A model generated the notes under the pieces. That model saw nothing but the letters and a program-made list of their open reading frames with translations. It was not told the DNA's origin and made no database searches. 64,000 nt of DNA from a virus, in IMG/VR virus record IMGVR_UViG_3300038620_000091, one strand, 5' to 3'. Both the position numbers and the translations under genes were made by a program. This document shows positions 1 to 53,867 of this stretch, in pieces (position 1 is the stretch's first letter; the number at the start of each line of letters is the position of its first letter).

Positions 1-120
1 ATCGTTGACCAAAACATTCTTGTTGGAGATATCTTCATCCAACCAACAAGAACTGCAGAATTTGTTCAAATCGAATTCAACGTTCTTCCAAGTGGGGTTG
101 AATTTGGAGACGAAGGATAA
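1..120 (+). CDS. tail sheath protein, C-terminal fragment (partial)
   Basis: Frame 1 reads ...NILVGDIFIQPTRTAEFVQIEFNVLPSGVEFGDEG*, the typical C-terminus of T4 gp18-like sheaths; the tube gene follows. Confidence 0.9.
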   Translation: MVDQNILVGDIFIQPTRTAEFVQIEFNVLPSGVEFGDEG

Positions 121-189
121 CCTTTTACAATCAATTAACAAATAAAAACAGTTACGTGAAGAAAATCAAATATAAAGTTTGAAAATCAA

Positions 190-684
190 ATGAAACTAGA
201 AGATGCTCTACGAAAAATTGTTCAAGAAGAAACTCAAAAACTACTCTCTGAGGTAGACCACAGTAGAAACATCGAAGTCCAAGAAAACATTACGGTACGA
301 GACATGAAGACAGGTGATATGCTTCGTATGCCGTTTAAAGGCGATTATCGCCTCTTCTTTATCGTTTGGCCGGGAGACGGGGAGTATTTTCACGCCCTTG
401 ACCTTGAAAAAATGACTGAAAGAGAGATTGCTTCTTTTTTTGCACACGTATACGACAGGCTTTCACCTATGGCCCGAAGAATGATGGAGAAGACGTTCCC
501 GCGTCGTTTGACACTTGGGCCAATCAAAAAAGACGAGAATTTTTATCACGATATTATCAAAAGCCTTGATTTCGTGAAAGATAATTACAGAACTCCGAAA
601 ATTTCAAACATCGGGGACGACTTAATCCAGCGCGTTGTGTATAAACCTTCTCTTTCCGGAGAGATTTCCGACTATCTTATGTAG
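190..684 (+). CDS. leader-bearing putative virion protein; cargo paralogous to 44703..45146
   Basis: N-terminal MKLEDALRKIVQEETQKLLSE leader; cargo shares GD..F, H(A/G)(L/I)D, FY and YRT motifs with the 44703 ORF. Confidence 0.6.
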   Translation: MKLEDALRKIVQEETQKLLSEVDHSRNIEVQENITVRDMKTGDMLRMPFKGDYRLFFIVWPGDGEYFHALDLEKMTEREIASFFAHVYDRLSPMARRMMEKTFPRRLTLGPIKKDENFYHDIIKSLDFVKDNYRTPKISNIGDDLIQRVVYKPSLSGEISDYLM

Positions 685-695
685 ACATGAAGAAA

Positions 696-780
696 TACCT
701 TACGCCGTAGGACCGTTATAGTTAGTTTCCTAAAGGCGAAGGACGTGGGGGGCTCAAAATATCCGAGGGTCCCCCACATT
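696..780 (+). ncRNA. candidate structured RNA element
   Basis: Nested stems CCTT(A)CGCC/GGCGAAGG (698-742) and TAGGA/TCCTA, then a GC-rich hairpin GTGGGGG...CCCCCAC (745-777), in an otherwise AT-rich spacer. Confidence 0.4.
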
Positions 781-806
781 TATGAAGGTAAGACTAAGTA
801 AATACT

Positions 807-1136
807 GTGAAACTTACTGAAGACAAACTTCGACGTATCATTCGCGAAGAAATCCACCGCCTTAGCGAAGGCTCAAACAGCACCCGAATTGTGCAGGCGC
901 TGTATGAGCTTATGGAGCGTAATGGCCTCAACCCGCGCATCAAGCAGCAAAATGTGGTTGAGTTTGGTGATGGCTACGATTACGTGCGCGTACACCAACA
1001 CGACCAACACTTTTTTGACGTTAAAATTAGCGTTCCCGGAATGACAAAAACGCATCGAATTAATGTTCGAGACTCCGAAACGGCCCGTGACGCCGCAATT
1101 GAAATTTATGATAAGCTTGATAGATACGGAGTTTAA
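807..1136 (+). CDS. leader-bearing small protein (cassette array member)
   Basis: MKLTEDKLRRIIREEIHRLSE leader followed by a unique cargo. Confidence 0.75.
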   Translation: MKLTEDKLRRIIREEIHRLSEGSNSTRIVQALYELMERNGLNPRIKQQNVVEFGDGYDYVRVHQHDQHFFDVKISVPGMTKTHRINVRDSETARDAAIEIYDKLDRYGV

Positions 1137-1162
1137 TCAAAAACCCTTATAACAAAACTATT

Positions 1163-1399
1163 ATGTCTCAATACAACGATGGAAAACATGCCAGATACAA
1201 GCTTCGTGAGATCATGAAGTTTGCGAAAATGCTTCATGACCACATCGAGCCGGGAGACGAGCTTCCCGAATGGATTATGGACAAATTCACAATATCTGCA
1301 AATGACTTAAACGAGTCTTACCAGTATCTTGAAAACAAGTCCATTGAAAAGAAAATCCGTATGTACGTCCGGGAAGAAATCCAAAACCAATCTCGGTAA
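1163..1399 (+). CDS. conserved phage hypothetical protein with C-terminal leader-like motif
   Basis: ARYKL...AKML...ELPEWIMDKFT...YQYLE helical domain; ends KIRMYVREEIQN. Confidence 0.65.
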   Translation: MSQYNDGKHARYKLREIMKFAKMLHDHIEPGDELPEWIMDKFTISANDLNESYQYLENKSIEKKIRMYVREEIQNQSR

Positions 1400-1413
1400 C
1401 TTTTAAATAAGTC

Positions 1414-1422
1414 CTATATATA
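1414..1422 (+). promoter_or_regulatory. putative late promoter (CTATATATA-type)
   Basis: Same or similar motif upstream of the tube (1414), chaperone (7272), endolysin (61267) and fibre (63643) genes; T4-like TATAAATA at 6777. Confidence 0.5.
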
Positions 1423-1479
1423 GACAGAATACGTAACATGTTACAATATTATAACCAAAAAATCAAATGGTAAAATCAA

Positions 1480-1977
1480 ATGGCATTTGAACAACTAGAA
1501 GACAACGAACTATTTTTCACGGAGTTTGAACCGAAAATGCAAAATCGGTTCTACTTCAAGCTTGCGGACTTAAACGTTCCGGCGTACCTTATTAAGTCTG
1601 CTTCAAGACCAGAAATCAATTTTAACACCGTTGAGCTTCCGCACATCAATATAACGCGGAAAGTCAAGGGGAAGGTGTCTTACGGAGACGTTTCACTTAC
1701 TCTTTACGACCCGATTTCCCCTTCTGGTTCACAAGCCGTTATGGAGTGGGTCCTCCAACACCACGAGCCAACCACCGGACGTGACGGATATGCTGACGGG
1801 TATAAAAGAGACGTTGTGTATAACACCCTTGACCCGTCTGGAACTCGAATTGAAGAGTGGAAGCTTAAAGGAGCGTTTGTAACGTCTGCTTCATTCAACG
1901 AGGCAGGATTTGAAAATGATGCTCCGTTCGAGATTAACCTAACGCTTGCCTACGATTATCCTGTGCAGAATTACTAA
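1480..1977 (+). CDS. tail tube protein (T4 gp19-like)
   Basis: FEPKMQNRF, SASRP, LTLYDPI, EEWKLKGAF and LTLAYDY tube motifs; lies downstream of the sheath. Confidence 0.9.
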   Translation: MAFEQLEDNELFFTEFEPKMQNRFYFKLADLNVPAYLIKSASRPEINFNTVELPHINITRKVKGKVSYGDVSLTLYDPISPSGSQAVMEWVLQHHEPTTGRDGYADGYKRDVVYNTLDPSGTRIEEWKLKGAFVTSASFNEAGFENDAPFEINLTLAYDYPVQNY

Positions 1978-2038
1978 TTTTCAATCAATTCCCACAGTTA
2001 ATCGTTTGGTTCAGTTTTTGTTAAAATTGCCAAATACA

Positions 2039-2320
2039 ATGAAACTGTCTGAACGCAAACTTAGGAAAATAATCAAAAGAGAGTTTAAAGAGATTTTTCC
2101 GGGATTTGAACGTACTGGAAACGACGAAATTACTAGGAAACTTGCTGACTTCAAAGAGCAGCTTCCAAAGTTTAACTCCAGAGATTTAGTTAACTTGGAA
2201 ATTCGGAACCCTAAACTCCGTAAAGACATGAAACGCTTACGCAAAAAGCTGAAGGGTGTTGAAGATTTTGTTGAAGAAATGATCGAAAAATCTAATAGAA
2301 ATAAATACAACAATAATTAA
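2039..2320 (+). CDS. leader-bearing small protein (cassette array member)
   Basis: Likely start is ATG 2039: MKLSERKLRKIIKREFKE. Confidence 0.7.
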   Translation: MKLSERKLRKIIKREFKEIFPGFERTGNDEITRKLADFKEQLPKFNSRDLVNLEIRNPKLRKDMKRLRKKLKGVEDFVEEMIEKSNRNKYNNN

Positions 2321-2325
2321 TTACT

Positions 2326-2901
2326 ATGGACGTTTTTCAAGAAATGAAAAGTTACTTAGAAAAAGCTGGAACTTCAAAATCTGATGGATACTCTTATAAA
2401 GGGTACTTCATCACTTTAGACCGAATGGGGGGTATGACCACCTTTGTAAATGTCCGAAGGGACGTTTACGATGAAGACGTGGTTGCTTCTGCAACGATTG
2501 AAGACGGTCGCGTTGAGCTTAAAAAAGATTCCGGTGGCATGACCCCAACGATGAATAAAATGAGATACCGAGGACCCGAATCGGTTCTTGACGCTCTTTT
2601 ATCAATGAACGAATCAAAAAACAAATCAAGAAAAAACACTATGAAACTATCTGAACGCAAACTTAAACGCATAATTCGTGAAGAAACAAAAAAAGCTATG
2701 AATGAAAGGAGCAAAGATGCTATGGAGATTGGTTCTTTCGCTGCGTCTGATGGAGACTATTCTGTAGAAGTAGTGACAAACCAATTGGGTAAATCCAACG
2801 TTCGTATTTCTTCTTACCGGGGAGAAACTGTACTATATCTCTCTCCTAGAACTGCAAAAAGACTTTCGGATCTTCTTCGTGAAGCTTCAATGAGTTCTTA
2901 A
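2326..2901 (+). CDS. two-cargo protein with internal leader (from 2641)
   Basis: Domain 1 ...SMNE, then MKLSERKLKRIIREETKKAMNE and domain 2. Confidence 0.7.
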   Translation: MDVFQEMKSYLEKAGTSKSDGYSYKGYFITLDRMGGMTTFVNVRRDVYDEDVVASATIEDGRVELKKDSGGMTPTMNKMRYRGPESVLDALLSMNESKNKSRKNTMKLSERKLKRIIREETKKAMNERSKDAMEIGSFAASDGDYSVEVVTNQLGKSNVRISSYRGETVLYLSPRTAKRLSDLLREASMSS

Positions 2902-2958
2902 CAATATGACTATGAATTAAACTCACAAGACTATTTTAATAAAAATTGAATAAAAATT

Positions 2959-3186
2959 ATGAGACTGTCCGAACGCAAACTTAAACGCATAGTCCGTGAA
3001 GAAACAAAAAAAGTTATGAATGAAGTAGACCTTTCCAGAGAATTTAAAACAATTGGAAAATTCATGGAAGATGTTTCCATGTCTTATGGTTCTGTTCGTC
3101 CAATTGGTGAAAAAACAGAACGTGGTGAAAAAGTTTACGAGTTTGAAATCAATGGTGCTATTTTTCAGATCAAACCTTTGACCTAA
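2959..3186 (+). CDS. leader-bearing small protein
   Basis: MRLSERKLKRIVREETKKVMNE leader. Confidence 0.75.
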   Translation: MRLSERKLKRIVREETKKVMNEVDLSREFKTIGKFMEDVSMSYGSVRPIGEKTERGEKVYEFEINGAIFQIKPLT

Positions 3187-3215
3187 CTAACAAACTAACC
3201 TAAAATTGAAGTAAA

Positions 3216-3554
3216 ATGAAACTATCAAGGCGCAAACTTAAACGCATAATTCGTGAAGAAACTCAAAACGTTTTGCAAGAGGCTTCTTACAGCCAAAGAA
3301 GCCGTACTGTTCGCATCGGTCGTGAAGAGTACGTAGTGGGTATTCGAGTTGAAGACGACCGTGTTGCATTAATCGCAGAGCCAAATGATCCACAAGCTAC
3401 TATGAATCGACGTGGTGATGAGTTTGACTTTATGAACGCTGTGTCAAAAGAGCTTGGTATTGATATTTACCATTTTGACGATCCAAGCATTTCTGACAGG
3501 GCAATGGCATTTCGCGTTCCCCCACAAGAAATTCTTGACCTAATTGTTCGATAA
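3216..3554 (+). CDS. leader-bearing small protein
   Basis: MKLSRRKLKRIIREETQNVLQE leader. Confidence 0.75.
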   Translation: MKLSRRKLKRIIREETQNVLQEASYSQRSRTVRIGREEYVVGIRVEDDRVALIAEPNDPQATMNRRGDEFDFMNAVSKELGIDIYHFDDPSISDRAMAFRVPPQEILDLIVR

Positions 3555-3573
3555 AACTAAACTTTAAAATACA

Positions 3574-3972
3574 ATGAAACTATCAAGACGTAAACTTAAA
3601 CGTATAATCCGTGAAGAGGTCCGTAACGTGATTCAAGAGTCTCCGATCCGGGGACAAGCATCCGACATGGACCGCGACGAGCTTATTATGCAGGGAAAAC
3701 AACTTGCACGTAGGTTAAGCAAAACAAGGCTTAGACAGCGCGTTCTTGGGCGTCTTGGTTTTGAAACCGCAGCGGACCTTTTGGGATACATGGATAGGAT
3801 GCAAGGCTTTAACATGGAAGTTCCACAACGCAGGTTCAACAGAGACGCGGTTCGTGACCAGCTTGTAAACGTTATCGAGACGATGATCGAGCTTATGGGC
3901 AAAGAAGACTTCTTTGCCGAGCTTCTAATGGCTGCTTCAACACAAGACATTCGAAATCTTCTTTCAAGATAA
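3574..3972 (+). CDS. leader-bearing small protein
   Basis: MKLSRRKLKRIIREEVRNVIQE leader. Confidence 0.75.
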   Translation: MKLSRRKLKRIIREEVRNVIQESPIRGQASDMDRDELIMQGKQLARRLSKTRLRQRVLGRLGFETAADLLGYMDRMQGFNMEVPQRRFNRDAVRDQLVNVIETMIELMGKEDFFAELLMAASTQDIRNLLSR

Positions 3973-3986
3973 AAAGTTAAACTAAT

Positions 3987-4646
3987 ATGTCTGCAAATAA
4001 AAAAGAACTGTCTCAATTGTTTGTAAGTCAAGCAAAGACAGAGTTGGGGCTGAAAAAGACTCGACCCATTACGGGGTTTGACGCTTCTTTTGAGGGTAGT
4101 TATGGAAAATTTGACGTTACGTTGTCCGTAGAAGAGTACATGGACCGGAACGACCCGTCCACAGTTGTTCAAATGACTTGGAAAGCGGGAAGTCAAGGAA
4201 TTTCTTTTGAAGATGATTTTCTTGATCACCGGGAAAGGGCGTTAAGGTTCTCTGCTTACCGCTTGACTTTTGATCCCTCTGGCATGTACCAAGAGGACCG
4301 GACAGCGTTGGGATCTAGAGTTGTGTACGACGGAAATTTTCAAAATACCGTTAAAAAAATGCATCGGTTAGTTACTAGAGAATTGAACTTAAATGAAAAT
4401 ACAATGAAACTATCAAGGCGCAAACTTAAACGCATAATCCGTGAAGAAACGAAGAAAGCTGTAAACGAAATGCAGCAAAGACGTATCCTGAACGGCAGGT
4501 CTTTTAGAAAATATCTTAAAGGCAAAAAAATTAAAGACACGGCTGTTACTCGAAGGGGCCTCAATCAATGGGAAATTCACTTTCCGAATAACGAAAGGCT
4601 TCTGATTAAAAACCCAGATGAAGTTTTGTTTAACGACCAAAGTTAG
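3987..4646 (+). CDS. two-cargo protein with internal leader (from 4404)
   Basis: Domain 1 ...LNLNE, then MKLSRRKLKRIIREETKKAVNE and domain 2. Confidence 0.7.
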   Translation: MSANKKELSQLFVSQAKTELGLKKTRPITGFDASFEGSYGKFDVTLSVEEYMDRNDPSTVVQMTWKAGSQGISFEDDFLDHRERALRFSAYRLTFDPSGMYQEDRTALGSRVVYDGNFQNTVKKMHRLVTRELNLNENTMKLSRRKLKRIIREETKKAVNEMQQRRILNGRSFRKYLKGKKIKDTAVTRRGLNQWEIHFPNNERLLIKNPDEVLFNDQS

Positions 4647-4702
4647 ATGTGACTAAAAAAGTTTATTGCCTCTTATTCACAACCAAATCAAAAAGCGTAA
4701 AA

Positions 4703-4995
4703 ATGTTGTTTAGAAGAATAAGAAGAATTGTTAAAGAAGAATTGTTAAAGAAGAAGTAACAAAGGTCCTTTCCAGCCGTGGACTTACAATAAGGGGAATG
4801 CCAAACAGCTTTTGTGTGGTTTTTGAATCCCTTACCGGGTCTGAGGTCATTAGAGACATTGTTTCCGAAGTGGATTACCTAACTCTTTGGAAAATGGGCA
4901 AGGGAACCACAGGAAAGGGACCCCGACCCGTTGGTATTTACGGCCCAAATAACAAGCAAGAAGCTATAAATCATGCAAATAGGTCACTGTATTAG
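4703..4995 (+). pseudogene. frameshifted cassette member
   Basis: Tandem 14-bp duplication agaagaattgttaa (4721-4734/4735-4748); removing one copy gives MLFRRIRRIVKEEVTKVLSS... in frame with ORF 4798..4995. Confidence 0.65.
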
Positions 4996-5062
4996 ATCGA
5001 CTGTTTAGAATAAAAAGGTTAGAATAAAAAGGTTACACTATTCATAAATTAACGAAAATACA

Positions 5063-5485
5063 ATGAAGCTATCAAAACGTAAACTGCAACGTATAATTCG
5101 TGAAGAAACCCGGAAAGTTCTAAGTGAGGATTCTACGGGGGTTGACATGGGAAGAGTTCTCCAGCTTATAAAAGAAGAAGGTGAAAGATTTCTTCGTATA
5201 GAAGACTTGCGAGGCCGAGTGACCGTTAGCCAAAGACACAATGTTGTTGATGTTGAAGATTCGAACTTAGAATATCCTATTACTATAACTGCGGAAGAGT
5301 CCAGAAGAGGTGGAGTCCTTGTAGAAGTTGGCTCTGAAATTTCTGTTAATTACGGACGTGGAAGTGGACTTGAAAAGATTTCGTATAGAGACCCGGAAGA
5401 TATTGTCAATAGCCGCAAGCTTCTAGATGCTATTACGGATCATCATATTATCATTGATGAATTTGAAGAATCAAGAAGATACTAG
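5063..5485 (+). CDS. leader-bearing small protein
   Basis: MKLSKRKLQRIIREETRKVLSE leader. Confidence 0.75.
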   Translation: MKLSKRKLQRIIREETRKVLSEDSTGVDMGRVLQLIKEEGERFLRIEDLRGRVTVSQRHNVVDVEDSNLEYPITITAEESRRGGVLVEVGSEISVNYGRGSGLEKISYRDPEDIVNSRKLLDAITDHHIIIDEFEESRRY

Positions 5486-5517
5486 TAACGGCATTAATCT
5501 ACACACGTTAAATTAGA

Positions 5518-5856
5518 ATGAGACTTTCAAGACGTAAATTACAACGAATAATTCGTGAAGAGATCCGAAAGACCTTAAATGAAAGGGTTATCCGGGAAAA
5601 GTACACAGTTGATGAGCTTGAACGAACCGTAAAAGACCAGTTTCCGATGGCCCGTGTCATTCGCACTCCAGACGGAGTACACAGAGGAATCCCATTCAGC
5701 GATTATGGTGGGGTTTTAGTTGATATGGGCGGTCGCCAAGAAATGTACTTTGTTCGTGTAGATGGAGAAGTTAAACGTTATAGCCCGGAATCTGGAAGTC
5801 TATTTATGGGCCGTTCTGAGGATGCTAAACTCTTGAAACAACTTTTTAACCTTTAA
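5518..5856 (+). CDS. leader-bearing small protein
   Basis: MRLSRRKLQRIIREEIRKTLNE leader. Confidence 0.75.
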   Translation: MRLSRRKLQRIIREEIRKTLNERVIREKYTVDELERTVKDQFPMARVIRTPDGVHRGIPFSDYGGVLVDMGGRQEMYFVRVDGEVKRYSPESGSLFMGRSEDAKLLKQLFNL

Positions 5857-5860
5857 CACT

Positions 5861-6268
5861 ATGAAATTATCAAGAAGAAAATTGCAAAGAATAATTCGTG
5901 AAGAGGTCCGAAAGACCTTAAACGAACGAGTTACCGAAGATGAACACGAGAGGTTTGTTCGTGGAATCGAAGAAGCGGTAAGCGACGTTCTTGGATTTTA
6001 CGATCTTCGAATGAACCCAAGAAGCGATAAAGGACCCGGTTCTCAAATCGAGTATCAAGACAGAGACGACACCAGAGGGTTCTTTGTTGACCTTGAAGAA
6101 ACCGGGCGTGGATATGAGATAACCGTCACCGGAAGAGGAAGGTCAATGGAAGAAGGAACCACGTTTCGCGTAAACAGCTTAGGTGACGAGTTTGTTACCG
6201 AGCTTGCTTACGTAATTGAAGAAGAGCCGCTTGAAGCAAGACCGGAACCGCGTTCATCTTTCCGGTAA
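5861..6268 (+). CDS. leader-bearing small protein
   Basis: MKLSRRKLQRIIREEVRKTLNE leader. Confidence 0.75.
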   Translation: MKLSRRKLQRIIREEVRKTLNERVTEDEHERFVRGIEEAVSDVLGFYDLRMNPRSDKGPGSQIEYQDRDDTRGFFVDLEETGRGYEITVTGRGRSMEEGTTFRVNSLGDEFVTELAYVIEEEPLEARPEPRSSFR

Positions 6269-6302
6269 CGACAAAGAATCAAAAATCAACCAGTAAAAAA
6301 TT

Positions 6303-6737
6303 ATGAGACTAAACAGAAGAAATCTTAGAAGACTTATCGAATCCGAAGTTGAAGAACAAGTTGGGGAAGAAGACGAAGAACACGAAGATGAAGAAAAGAC
6401 CGAGCGTGTTCGAGTTAAAAACAACGAGTCTGGAAACAGCTACAAGGTTCGACAGGACTTTGCGTTTTCAAATCCACAACGCTACTCTAGCATCCGAAAA
6501 ATGGTTCGAGAAGAGGTTCGTTCGATGATCGGAGAACAGTCCGGAGCCCAAGCTGCAGAAAAAACGATTGAAATCCGTTCGGATATGCAGCAAATGAACC
6601 GAAAGTTCCGAGACTTGATGCAGATGGTTAGAGACGTTGACCGTGATATGGTTGATTGGACAGAAGAAATTCATGAAGATTTCCGTGATCTAATGGATGA
6701 TCTTTACGACCTTGGAAACGAACTTTCTATGAAGTAG
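6303..6737 (+). CDS. protein with two leader-like motifs
   Basis: MRLNRRNLRRLIESEV at the N-terminus and SIRKMVREEVRSMIGE internally. Confidence 0.7.
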   Translation: MRLNRRNLRRLIESEVEEQVGEEDEEHEDEEKTERVRVKNNESGNSYKVRQDFAFSNPQRYSSIRKMVREEVRSMIGEQSGAQAAEKTIEIRSDMQQMNRKFRDLMQMVRDVDRDMVDWTEEIHEDFRDLMDDLYDLGNELSMK

Positions 6738-6806
6738 TTAAATTTAGAAGTAACACTTTTATAATTAGTTATCTAGTATAAATACACAAACACGAAATTT
6801 TGCCAA

Positions 6807-7247
6807 ATGCGACTTTCAAGGCGTAATTTAAGAAGAATTATCAAAGAAGAGACAAACAAGCTTCTTTCCGAGCAAACTCTTCCAAGAGACTTTACCGTTG
6901 ATATTCATCTTGGAAAGTACGGAAAAAGGTGTGCCGAGTATGTTATGGATGATCTTCAAGATAGGCTTCCGCGAAAGGCCGACATGTACGTTGATTACGG
7001 GCCGAAGCACCTTCGCGGGTCCGGTGGATTTGGATTTGTAGCCTACAGTAGAAGTGATCTTGAATATGAAGTTCAACTGACCGTGATGCTTGCCGCCAAA
7101 AACGAGAACATCATTCAAGTTAGAATACAAGGCCCGGATAGGGGAACAGAAAAAGAAGAGTGGACTTTTGGCATGAACGAAAATCCACAGGACCAGTTAG
7201 ATAATGCTGCTTCATATATTATTCGTATGCTTGGGTACCGCACATAA
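6807..7247 (+). CDS. leader-bearing small protein
   Basis: MRLSRRNLRRIIKEETNKLLSE leader; TATAAATA at 6777 upstream. Confidence 0.75.
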   Translation: MRLSRRNLRRIIKEETNKLLSEQTLPRDFTVDIHLGKYGKRCAEYVMDDLQDRLPRKADMYVDYGPKHLRGSGGFGFVAYSRSDLEYEVQLTVMLAAKNENIIQVRIQGPDRGTEKEEWTFGMNENPQDQLDNAASYIIRMLGYRT

Positions 7248-7330
7248 ACTTCCGGGATCGTTGAGCTATCCCTATCTATAAACAGAGTTTAACGTCGAAT
7301 AAACAAAAATCATTTACAAACGAAACCGTT

Positions 7331-8101
7331 ATGGCAAACTTTGAACCAGAAATTCAATCAAAATCCTTTGAGCTTCCAAGCAAAGGGTATTTTTACGATA
7401 AAGACAACCCTTTGGCAAATGGCACGCTTGAAATCCGGGCCATGACTGCAAAAGATGAAGACATTTTAACAGATCAAAACCTTGCAAAGAAAGGCAAGAC
7501 GCTTGACCGTCTTTTAGACAATGTGATTGTTACTCCAATTGATATGGACACAATGCTTTTAGGGGACAAGGCGGCAGCAATTGTGGCTACTCGAATTATC
7601 GGATACGGGCAACATTACCAGTTCACCTACAAAGACCCGTCCAGCGGAGAAAAACGAAAAGCAAGCGTTGACCTTGTTAACGATTTAAAAGATAAAGAGA
7701 TTCCGTTTGAAGAGTTTGACAGACACCAGAAAGAGTTTGACTTTCAACTCCCACAAACCGGATATAACGTGAAATTTAAGCTTCTTCGCCATAAAGACAA
7801 TGTGGACATGCGTTTTGAAAGAAAGAAGCTTCAAAGAGACGATGGAACCGAAGGAAACATTACGCTTCGTTTGAAGCACCAAATCGTAGAAATTGAAGGA
7901 GACAGAGACGGGTCAACGATTGCAGAGTTCATTGACGAGTTCATGCTTGCAAGAGATAGTAGGGCGCTTCGTGAAGAGGTAGACCGAGTAACCCCCGATA
8001 TTGATCTTACCATTGACGTGTCCACAGACGACGGTGAAGTTGAAGAGGTTCCGATTCAAATCGAACCGGAGTTTTTTTTTCCTTCCCGGACGGATACATA
8101 A
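7331..8101 (+). CDS. tail/baseplate-hub assembly chaperone (T4 gp26-like)
   Basis: ELPSKG, IRAMTAKDEDIL and EFFFP motifs; located before the tape measure. Confidence 0.8.
   Translation: MANFEPEIQSKSFELPSKGYFYDKDNPLANGTLEIRAMTAKDEDILTDQNLAKKGKTLDRLLDNVIVTPIDMDTMLLGDKAAAIVATRIIGYGQHYQFTYKDPSSGEKRKASVDLVNDLKDKEIPFEEFDRHQKEFDFQLPQTGYNVKFKLLRHKDNVDMRFERKKLQRDDGTEGNITLRLKHQIVEIEGDRDGSTIAEFIDEFMLARDSRALREEVDRVTPDIDLTIDVSTDDGEVEEVPIQIEPEFFFPSRTDT
8071..8080 (+). other. putative -1 programmed ribosomal frameshift site
   Basis: G followed by nine T near the end of the chaperone; the -1 frame is open and continues into 8131..8472 (SFPDGYIKEVHKEIFQLVYNG...). Confidence 0.7.
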
Positions 8102-8740: not shown

Positions 8741-11700
8741 ATGGCAACATCATTTGAAAAACTTGAATCCTCCCTTGAAGGATATACCCAAAAGCAGGAG
8801 GGCACATCCCAAGCCATAACCGAGCTTCAAACAGTCATTGACGGGTTTGAAGACGTAGAGCAAGAACGTCTTGAATCCGCTAGTCGCCTCTTAGAAAGCT
8901 TAGAGAGAAACAACGAACTTCTCTCCCAATCCATCGATCAAACCGTTCCTAACGCCTTAGCGCGGCTTGAAGATATAAGTGGAACCCCTGCCGGGACTGC
9001 AGCCGCAAGTGTCATTGGGGCGCTTCCGGAAACCGAAAACTTAGAAGAGCTTTCATCTGTCACCGAAGAAGTGGTCGGGTTTATTGACAAATCCACCGAA
9101 ATTCAAAAGCAATTCAACGAAGGGGCGCTAACTCGAATCGAGCTTGAAGAAGAGCTTCAAAGCCTTCAAGAGCAAACAACTGAAAATCTAGAAAGACAGA
9201 AAAACGTCCAGTCCTCAACTGTTGAAGGAATAAGCGAGGACGTATCCCAAGCATCTGAACAGTACGGGGAGCTTTCCGGGCAAGTCCAAACGGCAGAAGA
9301 GTTTCAAGATGCTTTGAATACCCGTCTTGGGGATTTTGCCGAGCCTTTAACTGTGGCCTTAGAGAACTTACGTAGCGTAAAAGCTACACTTCTTGGTATT
9401 GTAACTTCTCCTTTGGCCGCACTTGTGGCATTGGTAGGTGGAGCCGTGACCGGGTTTGTGTCTTTGAGTAACCAAACTCAAGATTTTGTTGAAGAAACCG
9501 GGCTTGCCGTTGACCAAGCAAGAAACCTAACGACACAAATCAACCAAAGCCGAAGCCAAATCGCAAGGTTTGGCACGGAAGTTGAAGAGGTTCAAGCTGG
9601 CCTATCTACTCTTATTACAAACTTCGGCACCTTAAACAGCGCGGCAGAGTTCCTTGGAACAACATCCGAAGGCGTTCAAAGTGAAATTACGAAGGTGGCA
9701 GGTCGTCTTCGAATTGGTGGGGAAGAGGCCGCACAGCTTCTTACAAACTTCGAGGAGCTTGCGGGGCTTACAGGAACAACCCGCCAAAACCTACTGGAGT
9801 CGGCAGAATCCGCTTCAAGAATCACGGACGTTCCACTTCGAACAGTCACGCAAGACCTTTCCGAAAACGCAGAAGAGCTTGCAACCTTTTCAAATTCTTC
9901 AAGCGAAGAACTTGCAGCCGCTGCAGCACGGGCTAGAGAACTTGGCACAAACATCGGTGAAGTTGTTGACGCTCAAAAGAAATTCCTAAATGACCTTCCC
10001 GGCCAGCTTCAAGCCGTGGGTGAAGCTTCGGCTTTAACTGGAATTCAATTTGACCAAGCCGAGCTTGCACAGTCGGCCAACGAAGGAACGGCGGCGTTTC
10101 AAGACGCTTTGGTAAGCCAGTTTGAAGACGTTGATCTTCAAAACCTTCTCCCCTTCCAGAAGCAACAGATTCAAGAGGCTTTTGGGTTTTCAATTTCCCA
10201 AATCCAAAGAATTAAAGAGACGACCGAGGCGACCCAAGGTTCCGCAGAAGATTTAGCGGATTCGATTCGGGAAGGAAAAGTTGGATTTGACCGGGCATTT
10301 TCAGAGACAGAAGCGTTTACCGCCCTTCAAGCTCTTCAAAACGAGCTTTCTGCAGCCGCGTTTACACTTGTTGAAGAGTTTACCCCACTTTTTAAAAATT
10401 CAAGTTCGGTTGTTCAAAACTTAACTGAAGCCGTAAAAGCGTCTATTCCTATATTCCGGCTTTTAGGTGACGGTCTTCGAATCGTCGGTGAAGTTGTTGC
10501 ATTTGCACTTGACCGGATTGCAGACTTTATCAATATATCCGAGACGTTCATTAATTCCCTTGCAAGTGCAGCCGAAACGATGGAGGCTACCGAAAACAGA
10601 ACCGCAAGTTTAGCCTCTGTGTTTTTCGGGCTTGTGGACGCTACTGTTTTTCTTGCCAATAAAACGTCTGAATTTTATAACGAGTTTGTTAGTTTTCTTG
10701 GAATTGAAGAGGAATTTGAGTCGTTTGTTTCAACGGTCGTTGGTGGTTTTGAAACTTTTGCAAGCTACCTTACCGGGGGCGTTCTTCTTGGCGCTCTTAC
10801 GTTCTTTACCGGACGCGCAATTAAACGGTTCTTTACGTTCGGGGACGCGGTAGAAGAAGTGGCAGAAGAAACAGCAGAGTCAGTTGGAAATTCTTCAAAA
10901 AGCATCTTCGAGGGGCTTTCTAAGTCCATTACAAGCTTTGTGGACGGTCTTTCCGACGTTATTAACTCTGTCATTGACCTTGTAACTTCTGGCCTTAAAA
11001 CGCTTCTCTCTGGCCTTGGACAAGCAATAAGCGCGTTTGGAAAGGCTCTTACCCCACTCGTTAACCCGGCAGTTGCAGGGGGAATCGCTGTGCTTACAGG
11101 TGCATTGATCGGTATCGGTGGAGCAGCTCGTCTTGCAGCCCCTGCCATTGATACCCTTGGTGAAGTTTTGATTAGCCTGTTTGATAGCTTACAACCTGTT
11201 CTTGAAACACTAGCCGGGGGAGTTGCGGATCTGTTCCGGGACTTCGGAGAGGCGCTTGTAACCTTAGCTGAACAGGCGGTGCCTCTTGCGGATACTTTCA
11301 TTGACGGTTTCCTTCGTGTTATCGACCAAATTGGAGATAGCGTAGCGGGAGTTCTTGACACAATCTTCTCAGGAATTGTAAGCGTTGCAAATGCAGGTCC
11401 ACAAATTGCGGTGGCTGCAGGAGGGATCACTCAACTTGCAGCCGCGTTTACGACCCTTACCGCAAGTGGAATCATTCAAGGCTTAACAGATTTTGTTGGG
11501 CTTGGATTTGTCGGTCAACTTGAACAGATCGCTTCGTTTGCAGAACCTTTGAACATCGTTGGAGTCGCAATTGACCGGGTAGCTTCCGGGTTTGAAAAAC
11601 TTTCCGAAATTGACGTTGCATCGGTTGGAAGCGAACTCGCCCAATCGGTTGAAGATATTTCCGGGAATGAAGCCGTTGTTGAAGCCATTGGAGCGGCAGC

Positions 11701-11932
11701 GCCACAAACCACAACCGAAACCCCGACAACTGCAGGAGCAGAAGCTGGCGGTGGTGGTGAAGGAGGAACGGACATGTCCGATACAAATGGGCTTCTTCAA
11801 CGCCTTGTCCAGCAAAATCAAACGCTTATTCAAGTTATTGCCGAGCAAACCGATATTAATCTTGATTCGGAGAAAGTTTCAAAGACGCTTCGAAATTCAA
11901 ACAGCGCGAATACTTTGAAAAGCAATATTTAA
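8741..11932 (+). CDS. tape measure protein
   Basis: 1063 aa, helical, Ala/Gly/Leu-rich with hydrophobic stretches; follows the chaperone pair. Confidence 0.88.
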   Translation: MATSFEKLESSLEGYTQKQEGTSQAITELQTVIDGFEDVEQERLESASRLLESLERNNELLSQSIDQTVPNALARLEDISGTPAGTAAASVIGALPETENLEELSSVTEEVVGFIDKSTEIQKQFNEGALTRIELEEELQSLQEQTTENLERQKNVQSSTVEGISEDVSQASEQYGELSGQVQTAEEFQDALNTRLGDFAEPLTVALENLRSVKATLLGIVTSPLAALVALVGGAVTGFVSLSNQTQDFVEETGLAVDQARNLTTQINQSRSQIARFGTEVEEVQAGLSTLITNFGTLNSAAEFLGTTSEGVQSEITKVAGRLRIGGEEAAQLLTNFEELAGLTGTTRQNLLESAESASRITDVPLRTVTQDLSENAEELATFSNSSSEELAAAAARARELGTNIGEVVDAQKKFLNDLPGQLQAVGEASALTGIQFDQAELAQSANEGTAAFQDALVSQFEDVDLQNLLPFQKQQIQEAFGFSISQIQRIKETTEATQGSAEDLADSIREGKVGFDRAFSETEAFTALQALQNELSAAAFTLVEEFTPLFKNSSSVVQNLTEAVKASIPIFRLLGDGLRIVGEVVAFALDRIADFINISETFINSLASAAETMEATENRTASLASVFFGLVDATVFLANKTSEFYNEFVSFLGIEEEFESFVSTVVGGFETFASYLTGGVLLGALTFFTGRAIKRFFTFGDAVEEVAEETAESVGNSSKSIFEGLSKSITSFVDGLSDVINSVIDLVTSGLKTLLSGLGQAISAFGKALTPLVNPAVAGGIAVLTGALIGIGGAARLAAPAIDTLGEVLISLFDSLQPVLETLAGGVADLFRDFGEALVTLAEQAVPLADTFIDGFLRVIDQIGDSVAGVLDTIFSGIVSVANAGPQIAVAAGGITQLAAAFTTLTASGIIQGLTDFVGLGFVGQLEQIASFAEPLNIVGVAIDRVASGFEKLSEIDVASVGSELAQSVEDISGNEAVVEAIGAAAPQTTTETPTTAGAEAGGGGEGGTDMSDTNGLLQRLVQQNQTLIQVIAEQTDINLDSEKVSKTLRNSNSANTLKSNI

Positions 11933-11976
11933 AAGTAAACAAGATTTTCACATAAAAAACCCTCTTTACTAGTAGC

Positions 11977-14900
11977 ATGGCTCTTTTTGATAATTTAGAT
12001 GAAAATTCAGAGGTTCCGGGAACGCCAGAGAAAACACAGGTTCCGGAAACAGACCCGGATGTGCGTCTATCGAAAGAAACGTCCCCGAAGCGACAGGACC
12101 CGCGTGTTAACAGACCAAAGAGTGAAGGACCGAAGCTAAAAGATCCAAGAGTGAGTAAAGCTTCACAAACCGGGGTAGACCGAAGCGATTTTTCTAACCG
12201 AAACGCTCCGGATACCGAAGGGCCAAAAGAAAAAGATCCTTCCATTCCAAGACAAAATCAAGAGCAGGTCCAAAGAAAAGAAAGGTATAACATCGGGCAA
12301 ATCAACCAAACTCCAATTGAGCCAAAAACCTATTCGTTTGAAAGCTTAAATCAAAGAGGCGTCGAGCCTCAAGAGCAAAATTTAGATGAAGCAAGACAAA
12401 CAGGTGTTCAAGAAAAAGAAAACCTTGGCGTTGAAGAAACGCAAAACGAAGGCGTTTTATTTCAAAATGTAGTAGAAGGGGTTGAAGTCCCCGATTTTCA
12501 AGGGCCGCAAGAACTTGACCCGAATGTAGAAGATGTAGATGAAAATAGACAAACTGTTCCAAGCCGAGAAATTGACGTAACAGAGTCTTCAAACTTCGGG
12601 GTGGAGAGAAACGTAGATATCGGCGTCAATTCAAACGTTGACCAGTCTCCACCTAAAAACGAAAGGCAAGACTCCGGGCTTGTCGAGTCCCAAACAAGAG
12701 TTGAAAATGTTCAACCTGACGTTTCCCTGTCTTCGAATCTTGGGGTAAACGAAAACCAAGACACCGTTTCTTTATCTTCAAATCTTGGAGTGGTCGAGTT
12801 TGACGTTGAACTTTTTCGTTTGGATCAAACACCGATCCGGCCCCCAAATGTTCGTTTTGAACTTCAAGATCAAACAAAAATTGATCCACGTTTGATTGAC
12901 TCGATTGATTCTTCTCCGTCGAATACGGGAGTTGAAGCCCCAAGTGATCTTGGAGTTCCCGTGGCAGAAAATACGGGGGTAGAGATTCCCGAACCAGACG
13001 CGGCGTTTCCAAATGAGGTGGATGTTGGGGAAGCAAACATTGTTCCACTTTCAGATCCTCTTGATCTTCAAATTCCAAGTCAAGAGCTTATTGATCCAAC
13101 TGTAGAGCGAGATTTCCCCCAAGAAGTTTCAATTGAGCCTGTAGAAAATACAGAAGTTGACCTTGCAGAAGACGTTGGCGTTGAAGAACAGGCAGTTTCA
13201 ATTCCTCTTCAAAATCAAAACCAAGTTGAAGACCTTCGGCCACAAATCGAAGAAGCGGAGGAAACTCAACTTCAAAACGTGGAAATCGAAGGCATTTCTC
13301 CGGTAGAAAACTCTGGAAACATCCCACTTGAAGAGCTTGAAATTGAAGAGGTAAACGTAGAATATGACCAGTCTGGAGAGGTGCCTACTTTTCCGGAAGA
13401 AATTTTACTAGACCGATCCGAGCTTCCGGGGCTTCCAACTCCACAAAGCCTTCAAGAAAGAAACGAGCGGTCAAGAGATCGTGAGTTTGAGCAGTTTAGC
13501 CTTTCAAATGGGTTTTTGGATCAACCGTGGATCACCACACGGCCAGACGACCCAAGAACAAATCTGTATGAAGGAAGCAGGGTAGTTCCGGGGAGAGAAC
13601 ATGCAGAAGACCAAGTTCGTCTTTCAAAGTTTCTTGCATCCCCGCGTGGAATTTTGTTTAATGCAAAGCAGTCTACCCTTCAAACACAAAATACAAGAAG
13701 GCTTACAAGAATTTACGACCCCGCTGCACTTCGAAATTCGGCACTTTCTTATCTTGTTTCCGATACCCGCCACGTATCGGCAGGAGAAGGGCTTTTAGGA
13801 AGCCTTGTGAGCCGCTTAGACGGGCTTACAAGTTTTGTTAGTGGCCTTAGTGACCTTCCAAAAGACAGCACGAGAGAAGAAGAAATAAGGGCCTTAACAG
13901 ATGGTCAAGGATATCTTCGAAACCAAACCCCAAGGTTTGAAGGAGAAGGGCTAACGGGGGCTCAATATAGAGAACGAGCACGCCAAGCGTTAGCGGATCA
14001 AGTTGAAGACCTTCGCCCGGATTTTTACACGCTTCAGCCTAGAGGTCCCCGCAGGCTTCAACGCGATAGGCAAGAAATTCTTGAAGGGTCAAGAGACTCC
14101 TTCATCGGAATGAAACCTATAACAAGCACCGAAAAGGTTGGTGAAGGCCCACTTGGAACGCCAATCACAAGAGAAACCGAGACGTTTGATACATATAACC
14201 CGCTTCGGACAAGAGAAGATTTTCTTGAAAACTTCGAAGACGGTGAAAGTCCAATTACCGAAAAAACGGTCGAAGACGAGTCGGATCTTTCCAAAGAACA
14301 GTTTAACCCGTATCCAGACGTTGTTCGGGGCGAAGAGCCGGGACCAGATGAAGGCGTTCCGAAAGATGAAAACTTTGAGCCAGAAGACGGCTACTTCATT
14401 CTTTACAGAAGAGAAGGAGACGCTTCGTATGGGTACCCGAACTACTCTAGCGAAGAAAAGTTTGAAGACCTTGTAAATTCAAAACCAATTGAAGAGTATC
14501 AAACGACAAACGGAGAAATTGACGATTCCGAGGTACTTACCGGACCAAACGGTGAAGAGTTTAAAGACGTGGTCCCGTTTCGCATTTACGATCTAATTAA
14601 TAGAAGGCGTCTTATTTTTCGCTCGTATCTTCAAGGAATCTCTATATCTAACGAAACGAACTGGAGTTCCAACCAGTATGCCGGAAGACCGGAAAAGTAT
14701 CACATCTACGGTGGAAATAGCAGGTCCCTTTCGTTTAGCTTTTCTACGTTTGCACAAAGCGAAAAAGAGTTTGAAAACCTTTGGGACAAAATCAACTACT
14801 TAAATGGCCTTGTTTATCCGTCAAACATTCAAACGCTTCGAGGTGGTGGAGCTTATATGCTTGCCCCGTTTTTGAAAATTACGTTAGGAGACCTTTTAAA

Positions 14901-15093
14901 CAAATGGCCGGGGTTCTTTCAAAGCTTAGATATTAGTTTTCCAGACGAAAGCCCTTGGGAGACTAGAAGTGGAAGAAGACTTCCAAAGCAAGCGGACATA
15001 AGTTGCACATACACCCTTATCGAAAGAGAGTTTCCAAACACCGGAGACAGACTTTTTGACGGTTCGTTTATTCAAGATTTTGATAATGCATAA
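11977..15093 (+). CDS. baseplate/tail-tube initiator-like protein with long acidic N-terminal extension
   Basis: C-terminal FRSYL.GIS...W....Y.GRPE..HIY....RSLSFSF...PFLKITLGD tube-initiator-like domain; position after the tape measure. Confidence 0.7.
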   Translation: MALFDNLDENSEVPGTPEKTQVPETDPDVRLSKETSPKRQDPRVNRPKSEGPKLKDPRVSKASQTGVDRSDFSNRNAPDTEGPKEKDPSIPRQNQEQVQRKERYNIGQINQTPIEPKTYSFESLNQRGVEPQEQNLDEARQTGVQEKENLGVEETQNEGVLFQNVVEGVEVPDFQGPQELDPNVEDVDENRQTVPSREIDVTESSNFGVERNVDIGVNSNVDQSPPKNERQDSGLVESQTRVENVQPDVSLSSNLGVNENQDTVSLSSNLGVVEFDVELFRLDQTPIRPPNVRFELQDQTKIDPRLIDSIDSSPSNTGVEAPSDLGVPVAENTGVEIPEPDAAFPNEVDVGEANIVPLSDPLDLQIPSQELIDPTVERDFPQEVSIEPVENTEVDLAEDVGVEEQAVSIPLQNQNQVEDLRPQIEEAEETQLQNVEIEGISPVENSGNIPLEELEIEEVNVEYDQSGEVPTFPEEILLDRSELPGLPTPQSLQERNERSRDREFEQFSLSNGFLDQPWITTRPDDPRTNLYEGSRVVPGREHAEDQVRLSKFLASPRGILFNAKQSTLQTQNTRRLTRIYDPAALRNSALSYLVSDTRHVSAGEGLLGSLVSRLDGLTSFVSGLSDLPKDSTREEEIRALTDGQGYLRNQTPRFEGEGLTGAQYRERARQALADQVEDLRPDFYTLQPRGPRRLQRDRQEILEGSRDSFIGMKPITSTEKVGEGPLGTPITRETETFDTYNPLRTREDFLENFEDGESPITEKTVEDESDLSKEQFNPYPDVVRGEEPGPDEGVPKDENFEPEDGYFILYRREGDASYGYPNYSSEEKFEDLVNSKPIEEYQTTNGEIDDSEVLTGPNGEEFKDVVPFRIYDLINRRRLIFRSYLQGISISNETNWSSNQYAGRPEKYHIYGGNSRSLSFSFSTFAQSEKEFENLWDKINYLNGLVYPSNIQTLRGGGAYMLAPFLKITLGDLLNKWPGFFQSLDISFPDESPWETRSGRRLPKQADISCTYTLIEREFPNTGDRLFDGSFIQDFDNA

Positions 15094-15108
15094 GAACATA
15101 CTACCATT

Positions 15109-15411
15109 ATGGCTAGGTACGAAAATCAAGAAGTCCGAAGTGACAATAGGCGAGGCAGAGTATACACTACAACAATCACTCCAAAGCCTCAAGACGTGAT
15201 TGGAACGATCCGAGTAGAAACAGAGCCGGGGGACCGTCTTGACACGTTAGCGAACAGGTACTACGACGATTCTACTCTTTGGTGGGTAATAGCTAGAGCT
15301 AACGGTTTAGGAAAGGGGGATTTTTCAGTTCCAAATGGAGAAGTACTGGAAATACCGAATCCGAGAGAGATTAACACCTACCTTCGAAGGCTTGATGAAA
15401 TTAACGATTAA
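15109..15411 (+). CDS. LysM-domain baseplate protein
   Basis: GDRLDTLANRYYDDSTLWWVIARAN...LEIP. Confidence 0.85.
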   Translation: MARYENQEVRSDNRRGRVYTTTITPKPQDVIGTIRVETEPGDRLDTLANRYYDDSTLWWVIARANGLGKGDFSVPNGEVLEIPNPREINTYLRRLDEIND

Positions 15412-15427
15412 CTGACAAAAAAGCGTT

Positions 15428-52347: not shown

Positions 52348-53136
52348 ATGAAAAGAAGACGTTTAACAGAAGATACAGATAACAGGCCAAAAGATGAAGA
52401 CCTCTGGCAAGACGTGCTTGCCGTAACCAAGGGCGAAAAAAACTCCGTGTCCCGAACTGTGGACGGGGAGGAAGTAACCGTCGAGGCCCCAAACGACGGG
52501 GATGGATTTGACGTTTACCCTTGCGTCCCCCTTGACAGTCAAGCCTTGACTCGCGAAGGTTGGAAAGCCCATGACCGAATTGAAATTGGCGATGAAATTT
52601 TGGCTTATGATATAGATGAAAATGTGCTTTCATGGAGCAAAGTTGAAGATAAACATAGATTCGAAGATGCTCCGATAAAGCGCATGTCAAAAGACAGGGT
52701 AAGTTTTGATGTTCGCTGCACTCCGGGGCACAAGTGGGTTGCCTTTCGAAAAAACAAGTTTGAAGACCGAAGGCTCATTGAAACGTCTGAGCTTCCAACG
52801 AGCTACAACCTTTTAACATCTGCGAAGCTTTCGGAAAGTGTTGAAGGAGAAGCCCTTGAAGAATTATCAAGTTTTGACGTAGAGCGCCGCCACCGAGGTT
52901 TACAAAACATGCACATTGAAGACGACGGAAGAGAAGATGTTTGGTGCCCACAGACTGAACACGGAACGTGGGTTATGCGTCAAGGGTCAACAGTAACAAT
53001 TACCGGAAATTCCGCTTACGCTAATGGTTGGGCTGTTCAAAGGTACGAAGAACTTGGGGGCGAGTGGGAAACCGTTGAAGAACAAATGCTTCGGAAGGTG
53101 GTCCGTGAAGAAATCAAAAGGCAAATCGGCAAGTAG
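52348..53136 (+). CDS. intein-containing conserved phage protein with leader-like C-terminus
   Basis: Exteins join as FDVYP|SAYANGWAVQRYEELGGEW; ends EEQMLRKVVREEIKRQI. Confidence 0.8.
   Translation: MKRRRLTEDTDNRPKDEDLWQDVLAVTKGEKNSVSRTVDGEEVTVEAPNDGDGFDVYPCVPLDSQALTREGWKAHDRIEIGDEILAYDIDENVLSWSKVEDKHRFEDAPIKRMSKDRVSFDVRCTPGHKWVAFRKNKFEDRRLIETSELPTSYNLLTSAKLSESVEGEALEELSSFDVERRHRGLQNMHIEDDGREDVWCPQTEHGTWVMRQGSTVTITGNSAYANGWAVQRYEELGGEWETVEEQMLRKVVREEIKRQIGK
52522..53010 (+). mobile_element. mini-intein (163 aa, no endonuclease)
   Basis: Block A CVPLDSQALT; block B CTPGHKW; block F VWCPQT; block G TITGN followed by Ser+1. Confidence 0.9.
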
Positions 53137-53141
53137 CAGTT

Positions 53142-53867
53142 ATGGGAATCTTAGGCGAAAAAGACGGTCTTGACACGTGGTTTGACTCTAGCAAAGGGGG
53201 TGGAACGTGGGTTGATATATCCCGGACAAACGACGACGGTTCTCACCCTGAATGTGGAGAGAACACAGAAAAGAAAGGTTATCCAAAATGCGTTCCGAAA
53301 AAGAAAGCGGATCAAATGACAAAAAAAGAAAAAGAGCGTTTGGTTCGCCGGAAAAGACGTAAAAACAACGACAACAAGCAAGATCCAGACATGGTAAGTT
53401 CAGATCCAAGCGACCAAAGAAAATCCGAGTCCGTTATTCGCACTTTCATTCGAAATCAAATTCGAGAAGACGTTGACACGTTCAAGTCTGTTTCTCGAAT
53501 GTTAAACGAAGATGAAGATTTGGATAACTGGTTCGATGAGGAAAATTGGGTAGATATTTCAAGAACCGTTGACGGAGAGCACCCGCCGTGTGGAGCGTCA
53601 AGCGACGACGAAGATAGAGAAGACAATCCGGAACACGAGTACCCAAAATGCGTTCCAAAATCAAAGGCAGAAAAACTTTCTGACGAAGAAAAAGAAGAGC
53701 TTGTTAGAAAGAAACGTCAATCTGTAAAATCCGACGACGCGGATCAAAGCTCCGAAGACGGGGATTCCGACGAACCAACATACACGTCAAGTGACCCGGA
53801 CGAAGACGAAAAAAACGAATCGCTTCGAACATTCATTCGTAAAGAAATTCATAAAGCCTTAAACTAA
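53142..53867 (+). CDS. tandem-domain conserved phage protein
   Basis: Two copies of LD.WFD...WVDISRT.DG.HP.CG...YPKCVPK.KA...LVR.KR, each followed by ES.(I/L)RTFIR. Confidence 0.75.
   Translation: MGILGEKDGLDTWFDSSKGGGTWVDISRTNDDGSHPECGENTEKKGYPKCVPKKKADQMTKKEKERLVRRKRRKNNDNKQDPDMVSSDPSDQRKSESVIRTFIRNQIREDVDTFKSVSRMLNEDEDLDNWFDEENWVDISRTVDGEHPPCGASSDDEDREDNPEHEYPKCVPKSKAEKLSDEEKEELVRKKRQSVKSDDADQSSEDGDSDEPTYTSSDPDEDEKNESLRTFIRKEIHKALN

Follow-up and report, generated by a model that had tools for sequence, protein, structure and literature searches.

A shared leader helix as a candidate capsid-targeting signal on exchangeable small proteins of an uncultured marine T4-type phage

Introduction

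Why would more than a dozen small phage proteins with different sequences carry one and the same basic helix, and where would that helix take them? The question is raised by a 64,000-nucleotide stretch of viral DNA (IMG/VR record IMGVR_UViG_3300038620_000091, hereafter the window), in which positions 190-7247 hold an array of genes sharing a leader of about 22 residues, each leading into a different downstream part, or cargo. The phage is a distant T4-type myovirus, uncultured and marine, and farther along the window it encodes a UvsX-like protein, a gp41-like helicase and ribonucleotide reductase. In T4, the internal proteins carry a 10-residue N-terminal capsid-targeting sequence (CTS) that is removed by the head protease gp21 (PMC9026906, PMC3012670), and Ip1-3 are injected inhibitors of type IV restriction (GmrSD) enzymes (PMC12373910). 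An original prediction for the array saw in it a larger, modular version of this T4 system. The analysis reported here suggests that the leader system is probably analogous to the CTS-tagged internal proteins of T4, with an address helix into the prohead that would be removed by a protease of the S77 family. More tentatively, at slightly less than an even chance, we propose that this position-independent, protease-removable helix may allow a clade of marine T4-related and giant phages to fill the capsid with dozens of small, exchangeable proteins, made singly or as polyproteins that are cut apart, which would be delivered together with the DNA.

Results

The window was examined by a six-frame motif scan and with a leader hidden Markov model (HMM). 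Thirteen intact leader units were found within 190-7247, all on the plus strand (Table 1), and the same scans found no intact form elsewhere in the 64 kb. One additional copy is frameshifted (4703-4995) and two are degenerate, one at the C-terminus of the open reading frame (ORF) at 1163-1399 and one inside ORF 6303-6737; the original prediction had counted about 14 ORFs with a common leader, in good agreement with this inventory. Two of the 13 units are internal to an ORF, the one from 2641 within ORF 2326-2901 and the one from 4404 within ORF 3987-4646. The window consensus starts M-K-L-S-R-R-K-L-K-R-I-I-R-E-E and mostly ends in h-x-E, where h is hydrophobic. The helix is very basic and amphipathic, with a net charge of +4 to +6 over the first 14 residues.

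Such a repeat could reflect an element that acts at the level of DNA, either a mobile regulatory or recombination cassette or a recent tandem duplication, with the peptide as a by-product. The leader DNA copies do have common stretches of at least 20 nt that could support recombination, and the cargos are clearly shuffled among relatives. However, nucleotide identity was 0.70 in the leader compared with 0.34, the random level, in the 45 nt upstream. Within the leader, identity was 0.77 at codon positions 1 and 2 and 0.57 at position 3. Over codons 2-15, the Nei-Gojobori proportions of synonymous and nonsynonymous differences (pS and pN) were 0.64 and 0.22, which places synonymous sites near saturation while the peptide is kept; just past the leader, pN/pS is about 1. 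The peptide is moreover conserved in 957 clusters from many metagenomes, where it is written in different codons. The excess of pS over pN in the core of the leader, together with unrelated upstream DNA, shows that it is the protein sequence of the leader that is kept. The repeat is neither chance nor a recent DNA repeat, and a DNA-level element as its explanation is very improbable.

The end of the leader was analyzed in 209 units from 163 family proteins, with shuffling of residues 16-32 as the control. The motif [LIVMF]-x-E with its Glu at positions 17-24 was present in 185 of the 209 units, compared with 36 +/- 5 in the shuffles (maximum 56), and the Glu occupied position 22 in 140 of these 185. 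Position P3 was Leu in 77%, Ile in 9% and Val in 9% (L/I/V 95%), while P1' was most often Ala, Gln, Ser or Gly. Conservation collapses past the Glu, where Pro, Gly, Ser, Asp and Ala dominate. In the window, h-x-E stands at residue 21 or 22 in 11 of the 13 units, and the earlier claim that the leader almost always ends in this way is thus borne out in the array and in the wider family. T4 gp21 cuts C-terminal to the Glu of L/I-x-E (PMC9026906), a published rule which the leader end fits.

The leader marks a large undescribed family. When a profile of its first 31 residues was searched against 1.84 billion proteins at E <= 0.001, 957 cluster representatives were recovered, the commonest start being M-K-I-T-K-R-Q-L-R-R-I-I-K-E-E. 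The motif was not found in the searchable literature, and megablast of window positions 1-8000 against 50,697 phage records gave no match. A profile scan of relatives had been proposed with the original prediction, and it returned 28 leader matches in G001, a complete 293-kb phage with terminal repeats, and 25 in LR756508, an uncultured 484-kb phage. LR756508 is also the closest of four phages compared by their tail tube protein, with 63% identity to that of the window; the others are Microcystis phage Mel-JY01 (52%), Flavobacterium phage immuto (42%) and Rhodothermus phage RM378 (42%). No leader matches were found in immuto or RM378, and Mel-JY01 gave a single weak one (E 0.02). The family is accessory, matching the non-essential internal proteins of T4: apart from that weak match, it is absent from three cultured relatives that have the head protease. 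A word-index search for long leader-bearing proteins (442-2000 aa) found none, which is itself weak evidence.

Leader arrays stand beside the tube gene, between the sheath and tube genes and those for the hub and tape measure, in the window, in L001, in L002/L003 and in LR756508 (219-221 kb). Mel-JY01 and immuto have the tube and hub genes side by side; the array is therefore inserted at a hot spot within a conserved late operon.

A gp21-type protease of family S77 (PF03420) is encoded in G001, G002 (locus L012), G004 (locus L011), LR756508, Mel-JY01, immuto and RM378. It was thus present in all four complete phage records reached via the tube protein and in all leader-bearing records of sufficient length (G001, G002, G004 and LR756508). 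The 64-kb window, which covers part of a contig of 171,766 bp, has no S77 gene, and the sequence of its near-identical relative L001/L023 stops short of the head genes. In L011/L012 and LR756508, members of the leader family flank the protease gene within the head-morphogenesis module. The order in L012 runs from the portal through small genes, two of them leader-like, to the protease, four leader genes, a very acidic scaffold-like gene and the major capsid protein (MCP; Table 1). The LR756508 module has five leader genes before the protease gene and four more between it and MCP. Two small proteins after the protease of G001 start with leader-like helices ending I-L-A-E and M-V-E. The MCPs themselves carry similar sites, V-N-E before A-N in L012 and L-R-E before A-N in G001, within about 10 residues of the position aligned to the mature N-terminus of T4 gp23. 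Across 609 kb around 80 further metagenomic S77 genes, we found four weak leader matches only, all 0.1-2 kb downstream and on the protease strand. As leaders are rare around these genes and the few hits are adjacent to them, the long leader is a feature of particular lineages and, where it is near a protease, stands beside it. As a separate observation, the S77 gene of LR756508 (L024 6481-8205; 156.5-158.1 kb) contains an intein with a LAGLIDADG domain in one 574-aa ORF (Pfam).

The leader also behaves as a joint. Two leader units per ORF were found in 52 of the 163 fetched family members, and the same cargo recurs in different settings. The cargo of 807 is preceded in P0016 and P0009 by unrelated N-terminal extensions and an internal leader that lacks Met, that of 3574 is the second unit of a 270-aa fusion in P0011 with a different first cargo, and the first part of 6303 is followed in P0022 by a different second unit with a full leader. 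Conversely, the leader and cargo from 2641 stand alone directly after the tube gene in L001 and P0010. In P0017/P0020 one cargo module follows the long leader, and in L012 5884-6855 it follows a shorter helix ending L-L-A-E. The ORF at 1163-1399 has an orthologue in L001 (9380-9895, 171 aa) in which the helix ends L-N-E and about 85 aa more follow, and from this comparison a cargo was either lost or gained exactly at the helix. The joints between exchanged modules are always at the leader, and units that are separated by cleavage after the Glu would be expected to tolerate fusion in this way.

Other cargos can be followed from genome to genome. Orthologues of 190 occur in L001 (7785-8279) and in L002 (2044-2583), there on the other side of the tube gene; 5063 has two paralogues or orthologues in L001 (8416-8823 and 8886-9317), 5861 has a relative in P0021, and 6807 has an apparent orthologue, judged by eye, at the same position in L002 (3790-4284). 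Even close relatives differ in the cargo at a given position, as between the window and L001, whose tube proteins are 99% identical, and between L011 and L012.

Large ORFs of G001 bear similar helices. A 923-aa ORF (L013 11521-14292) joins DUF192, a head domain of the CCA-adding enzyme/poly(A)-polymerase type and a PAP2 phosphatase, with leader-like helices ending L-x-E at the joints. Large ORFs near it, including 14219-16768, start with or contain a short helix of the form L-R-x-Y-I-R-x-L-L-x-E.

The cargos are 53-143 aa long and of mixed charge. In an all-against-all blastp of the leaderless cargos, no pair scored better than E 0.01 (best E 0.012, 17-sequence database), consistent with the original description of a different cargo of 50-140 aa behind each leader. 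A first alignment had suggested that the cargos are one diverged paralogous fold, and this idea was unsupported in pairwise comparison. Pfam and PHROGs searches with ten family ORFs (nine leader genes or two-module ORFs plus 190-684) gave nothing above threshold, as did a Pfam search with ten long family members. The 190-684 protein had no usable match in the ESM Atlas, and a word-index search for homologues of its cargo returned two near-identical proteins only. AlphaFold2 models from shallow alignments reached a predicted local distance difference test (pLDDT) score of 58 for the 5063 protein, whose leader forms helix 5-22. The model of the 190 protein, at 67, shows helix 2-20, a break and then a beta-rich core. 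The leader helix is set apart in both models, and the stretch that follows it is a break of low confidence. Structure searches of the cargos had been suggested along with the original prediction; carried out by Foldseek against the PDB with the better of the two models, that of the 190 protein, such a search gave no match at E <= 0.001. An anti-defence role of the cargos would be an idea drawn solely from the T4 precedent.

Discussion

We propose the following scheme. The leader genes would be expressed late, together with the structural genes, and each protein would be docked by its helix to the prohead core during assembly, where the very acidic scaffold may provide an electrostatic partner. 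A cut after the Glu of the terminal L/I/V/M-x-E would then be made by the gp21-type (S77) head protease, and the freed cargo would remain in the head with the DNA and probably exit with it at infection. Within a chain the tag may work as well, so that two cargos made as one ORF would be parted by the same cut, and new cargos may be gained or swapped through recombination at the leader.

The closest parallel is the T4 set of CTS-tagged proteins, IPI-IPIII and Alt, with the T-even Ip family: in both cases a short conserved N-terminal tag is borne by unrelated small accessory proteins (PMC9026906, PMC3012670, PMC12373910). In both, too, the tag ends in the head-protease motif and a gp21-type S77 enzyme is found in the lineage, and the loci are variable, with cargo that differs between close relatives. 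The differences are that leader genomes have 13-28 copies, compared with three in T4 and about ten known across the T-evens, that the leader is often internal or C-terminal, giving two-unit, polyprotein-like ORFs, and that the arrays of the window phage stand beside the tail tube gene. The original reading as a larger, modular version of the T4 internal proteins is supported in part and indirectly, by the L/I-x-E end, the S77 proteases of the relatives, the leader genes inside head modules and the two-unit ORFs; presence in virions, cleavage, injection and an anti-defence or takeover role would be predictions of that reading. Because the leader has no resemblance by eye to the CTS, and no internal-protein family was matched, the system is better described as an analogue than as a member of the T-even Ip family.

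Several observations weigh against this interpretation, among them that lack of resemblance to the CTS. At 22 residues, strongly basic and helical, the leader is also longer than the 10-residue T4 tag. Units 2039 and 6303 lack a Glu at position 21 or 22, and Glu-rich helical sequence makes x-x-E common in any case, although the shuffle control argues otherwise. The head module of the window phage is outside the 64 kb, and the link to the protease is drawn from its relatives. The arrays of the window, L001, L002 and part of LR756508 adjoin tail tube and hub genes, not head genes, and those of G001 lie more than 100 kb from the protease. The family is carried by no cultured phage in the 'phages' collection. 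Finally, most internal units retain a Met and a purine-rich run of codons upstream, and separate translation is therefore also possible; this would be compatible with cutting.

Other explanations were weighed against a cleaved signal for delivery. The proteins could be targeted to the prohead and cleaved there, and yet be structural or DNA-organizing components of the head core, comparable to T4 gp67/gp68 or phiKZ-like inner-body proteins, rather than injected effectors. The small leader-like proteins beside the protease of L012 and G001 lie exactly where T4 has its core genes, the cargos of 190, 807, 3574, 5063, 6303 and 6807 are conserved across relatives, and no cargo resembled a known anti-defence protein in the Pfam and PHROG searches or in the Foldseek search of the 190 model. 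However, the three cultured relatives share the head genes and the protease and lack the family (bar the E 0.02 match of Mel-JY01), the copy number ranges from 0 to 28, and cargos at the same position differ in close relatives, as noted above for L011 and L012 and for the window and L001. Such spread, absences and differences point to accessory rather than core behavior, and we regard a head-core role as rather unlikely. It is unlikely also that the helix remains as an uncleaved functional part, for oligomerization or for arginine-rich nucleic-acid binding, or docks another partner such as a modifying enzyme of the type that acts on ribosomally synthesized and post-translationally modified peptides (RiPPs). 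Its very basic, amphipathic character would suit such functions, but they leave the near-invariant boundary Glu and the flexible linker unexplained, and the helix is found N-terminally, internally and C-terminally, next to unrelated domains. Nor did the window, L001, L002, L012, L013, L024, L025 and L026 have a common non-structural neighbor gene: the neighbors are sheath, tube and hub genes in the window, L001 and L002, portal, protease, scaffold and MCP genes in L012 and L024, Hsp70-like and polyprotein ORFs in L013, and TnpB-like and aminoacyl-tRNA synthetase-like genes in L025. A regular maturase neighbor (RiPP-like, radical-SAM-linked) was not found in this limited set of inspected loci.

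Arrays that directly adjoin the tube gene, as in the window, L001, L002/L003 and LR756508 (219-221 kb), would fit a third destination, the tail, whether the tube lumen, the tape-measure complex or the baseplate. Contractile injection systems offer a model for this. In Photorhabdus virulence cassettes (PVC) and the antifeeding prophage (AFP), diverse payload genes with a common N-terminal signal cluster by the contractile-tail structural genes; these signals direct loading into the tube lumen, in a particle that contains no DNA, and have no link to a head protease. The leader family, in contrast, has members within head modules as well, and its end motif is that of the head protease: its arrays are tube-adjacent in four records, and two lineages, L011/L012 and LR756508, have it around the protease, between the portal and MCP genes. 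A tube lumen occupied by the tape measure would also leave little room for more than a dozen cargos. We consider an address to the tail quite improbable, and prefer the prohead as the destination.

Two further systems help to define what a prohead-directed leader would add. Propeptides of the giant phages phiKZ, 201phi2-1 and SPN3US end in a motif of the small-residue-x-E type. In these phages, where diverged gp21 homologues process propeptides and ejection or inner-body proteins, many head proteins are cleaved after Glu at a very short motif, some packaged proteins form paralogous families, and several cleavage sites can occur within one chain (PMC9026906, PMC5694885, PMC10052503). Their propeptides are not one shared, transferable 22-residue sequence, however, and their virion location is proven by proteomics, whereas that of the leader proteins is predicted from sequence. 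The leader, with its proposed role, also resembles the encapsulin signal in being a short transferable peptide that directs diverse cargo to an HK97-fold shell. In encapsulins such peptides bring their cargo in during assembly; they are usually C-terminal, bind the shell protein directly and are not removed by a protease, and neither DNA nor delivery is involved.

If the proposal is correct, these phages would have the largest and most modular known repertoire of injected phage proteins, and about a thousand cargo families could be screened as candidates for early host takeover or counter-defence. A simple sequence rule, a 22-residue leader ending L-x-E, would then pick out virion-delivered proteins of abundant uncultured marine phages. 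The 10-residue tag of T4 has been used for packaging foreign proteins into T4 heads. Capsid targeting would, on the same condition, emerge as a modular device found generally in the T4 superfamily, with tags that differ by lineage and that may stand internally or in polyproteins. A testable docking mechanism is suggested by the pairing of a long basic leader with a highly acidic scaffold.

Additional features of the array and the window

Table 1. Positions of the leader genes and neighboring features in the window, and gene order of the head module in locus L012.
Record	Position	Strand	Intact leader from	Feature	Evidence
Window	190-684	+	190	Diverged-leader gene (leader one residue shorter) with 143-aa cargo; directly after the sheath gene	HMM 39.5 bits
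Window	807-1136	+	807	Leader gene, GTG start, 88-aa cargo	Motif scan, leader HMM
Window	1163-1399	+		78-aa ORF closing in a degenerate leader-like helix; no cargo behind	
Window	1480-1977	+		Tail tube protein; context, outside the family	phrog_4542, E 3.5e-28
Window	2039-2320	+	2039	Leader gene, basic cargo of about 70 aa; no E at leader position 22	Motif scan, leader HMM
Window	2326-2901	+	2641	Two-module ORF: 105-aa N-module, internal leader, 64-aa cargo	Motif scan, leader HMM
Window	2959-3186	+	2959	Leader gene, 53-aa cargo	HMM 49.5 bits
Window	3216-3554	+	3216	Leader gene, 90-aa cargo	HMM 52.7 bits
Window	3574-3972	+	3574	Leader gene, 110-aa helical cargo	Leader HMM
Window	3987-4646	+	4404	Two-module ORF: 139-aa N-module, internal leader, 58-aa basic cargo	Motif scan, leader HMM
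Window	4703-4995	+		Fourteenth leader gene, shorter leader variant, frameshifted by a 14-nt tandem duplication (4719-4732, 4733-4746)	Three-frame translation; repeat family D4, spacing 14
Window	5063-5485	+	5063	Leader gene, 118-aa acidic cargo	Leader HMM
Window	5518-5856	+	5518	Leader gene, 90-aa cargo	Leader HMM
Window	5861-6268	+	5861	Leader gene, 113-aa acidic cargo	Leader HMM
Window	6303-6737	+	6303	Leader gene with acidic tract; second, degenerate leader-like helix at 6492-6536 (residues 64-78) before the C-terminal part	Leader HMM
Window	6807-7247	+	6807	Leader gene, 124-aa cargo; last gene before the hub	Leader HMM
Window	7331-8101	+		Baseplate hub protein; context	phrog_150, E 1.9e-13
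Window	8741-11932			Tape measure gene; context	
L012, order 1				Portal	phrog_213
L012, order 2	4253-4429, 4448-4747			The two leader-like genes among the small genes	HMM 18 and 25 bits
L012, order 3	4778-5476			S77 protease	
L012, order 4	6815-7210, 8862-9152, 9197-9757, 10001-10330			Four leader genes, the first with an internal leader	
L012, order 5	10529-11944			Very acidic scaffold-like gene	
L012, order 6				MCP	phrog_138

For the frameshifted copy at 4703-4995, the possible explanations are a pseudogene, a variant within the population or an error of assembly. A direct repeat of about 15 nt, in two copies of the type G-G-T-T-A-G-A-A-T-A-A-A-A-A, lies at 5003-5040, shortly before the 5063 gene. 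The leader starts have no Shine-Dalgarno sequence in the 10 nt upstream; many share A-A-A-T-A-C-A before the ATG, and the gene at 807 uses GTG. These start contexts hint at Shine-Dalgarno-independent initiation in the host or the phage. The T4 late-promoter consensus TATAAATA occurs once in the array (6777) and five times in the window, compared with 1.2 expected, while sigma-70 and terminator scans were at background level.

In LR756508, a TnpB/Cas12f-like gene (L025 1937-3229; OrfB_IS605 and TNB domain) lies within a leader-gene cluster and is a possible agent of local gene turnover. Two loci of the window far from the array contain related helices. A 262-aa ORF at 52348-53136 has, by eye, an apparent Hint/intein-like insert (start Cys-Val-Pro, end Gly-Asn before Ser) and a leader-like helix directly before the stop. 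At 53142-53867, two repeats of a Cys-containing module are each closed by a short helix of the I/L-R-T-F-I-R type, one of which ends I-R-E. Both loci may be further members of the joint-helix system.

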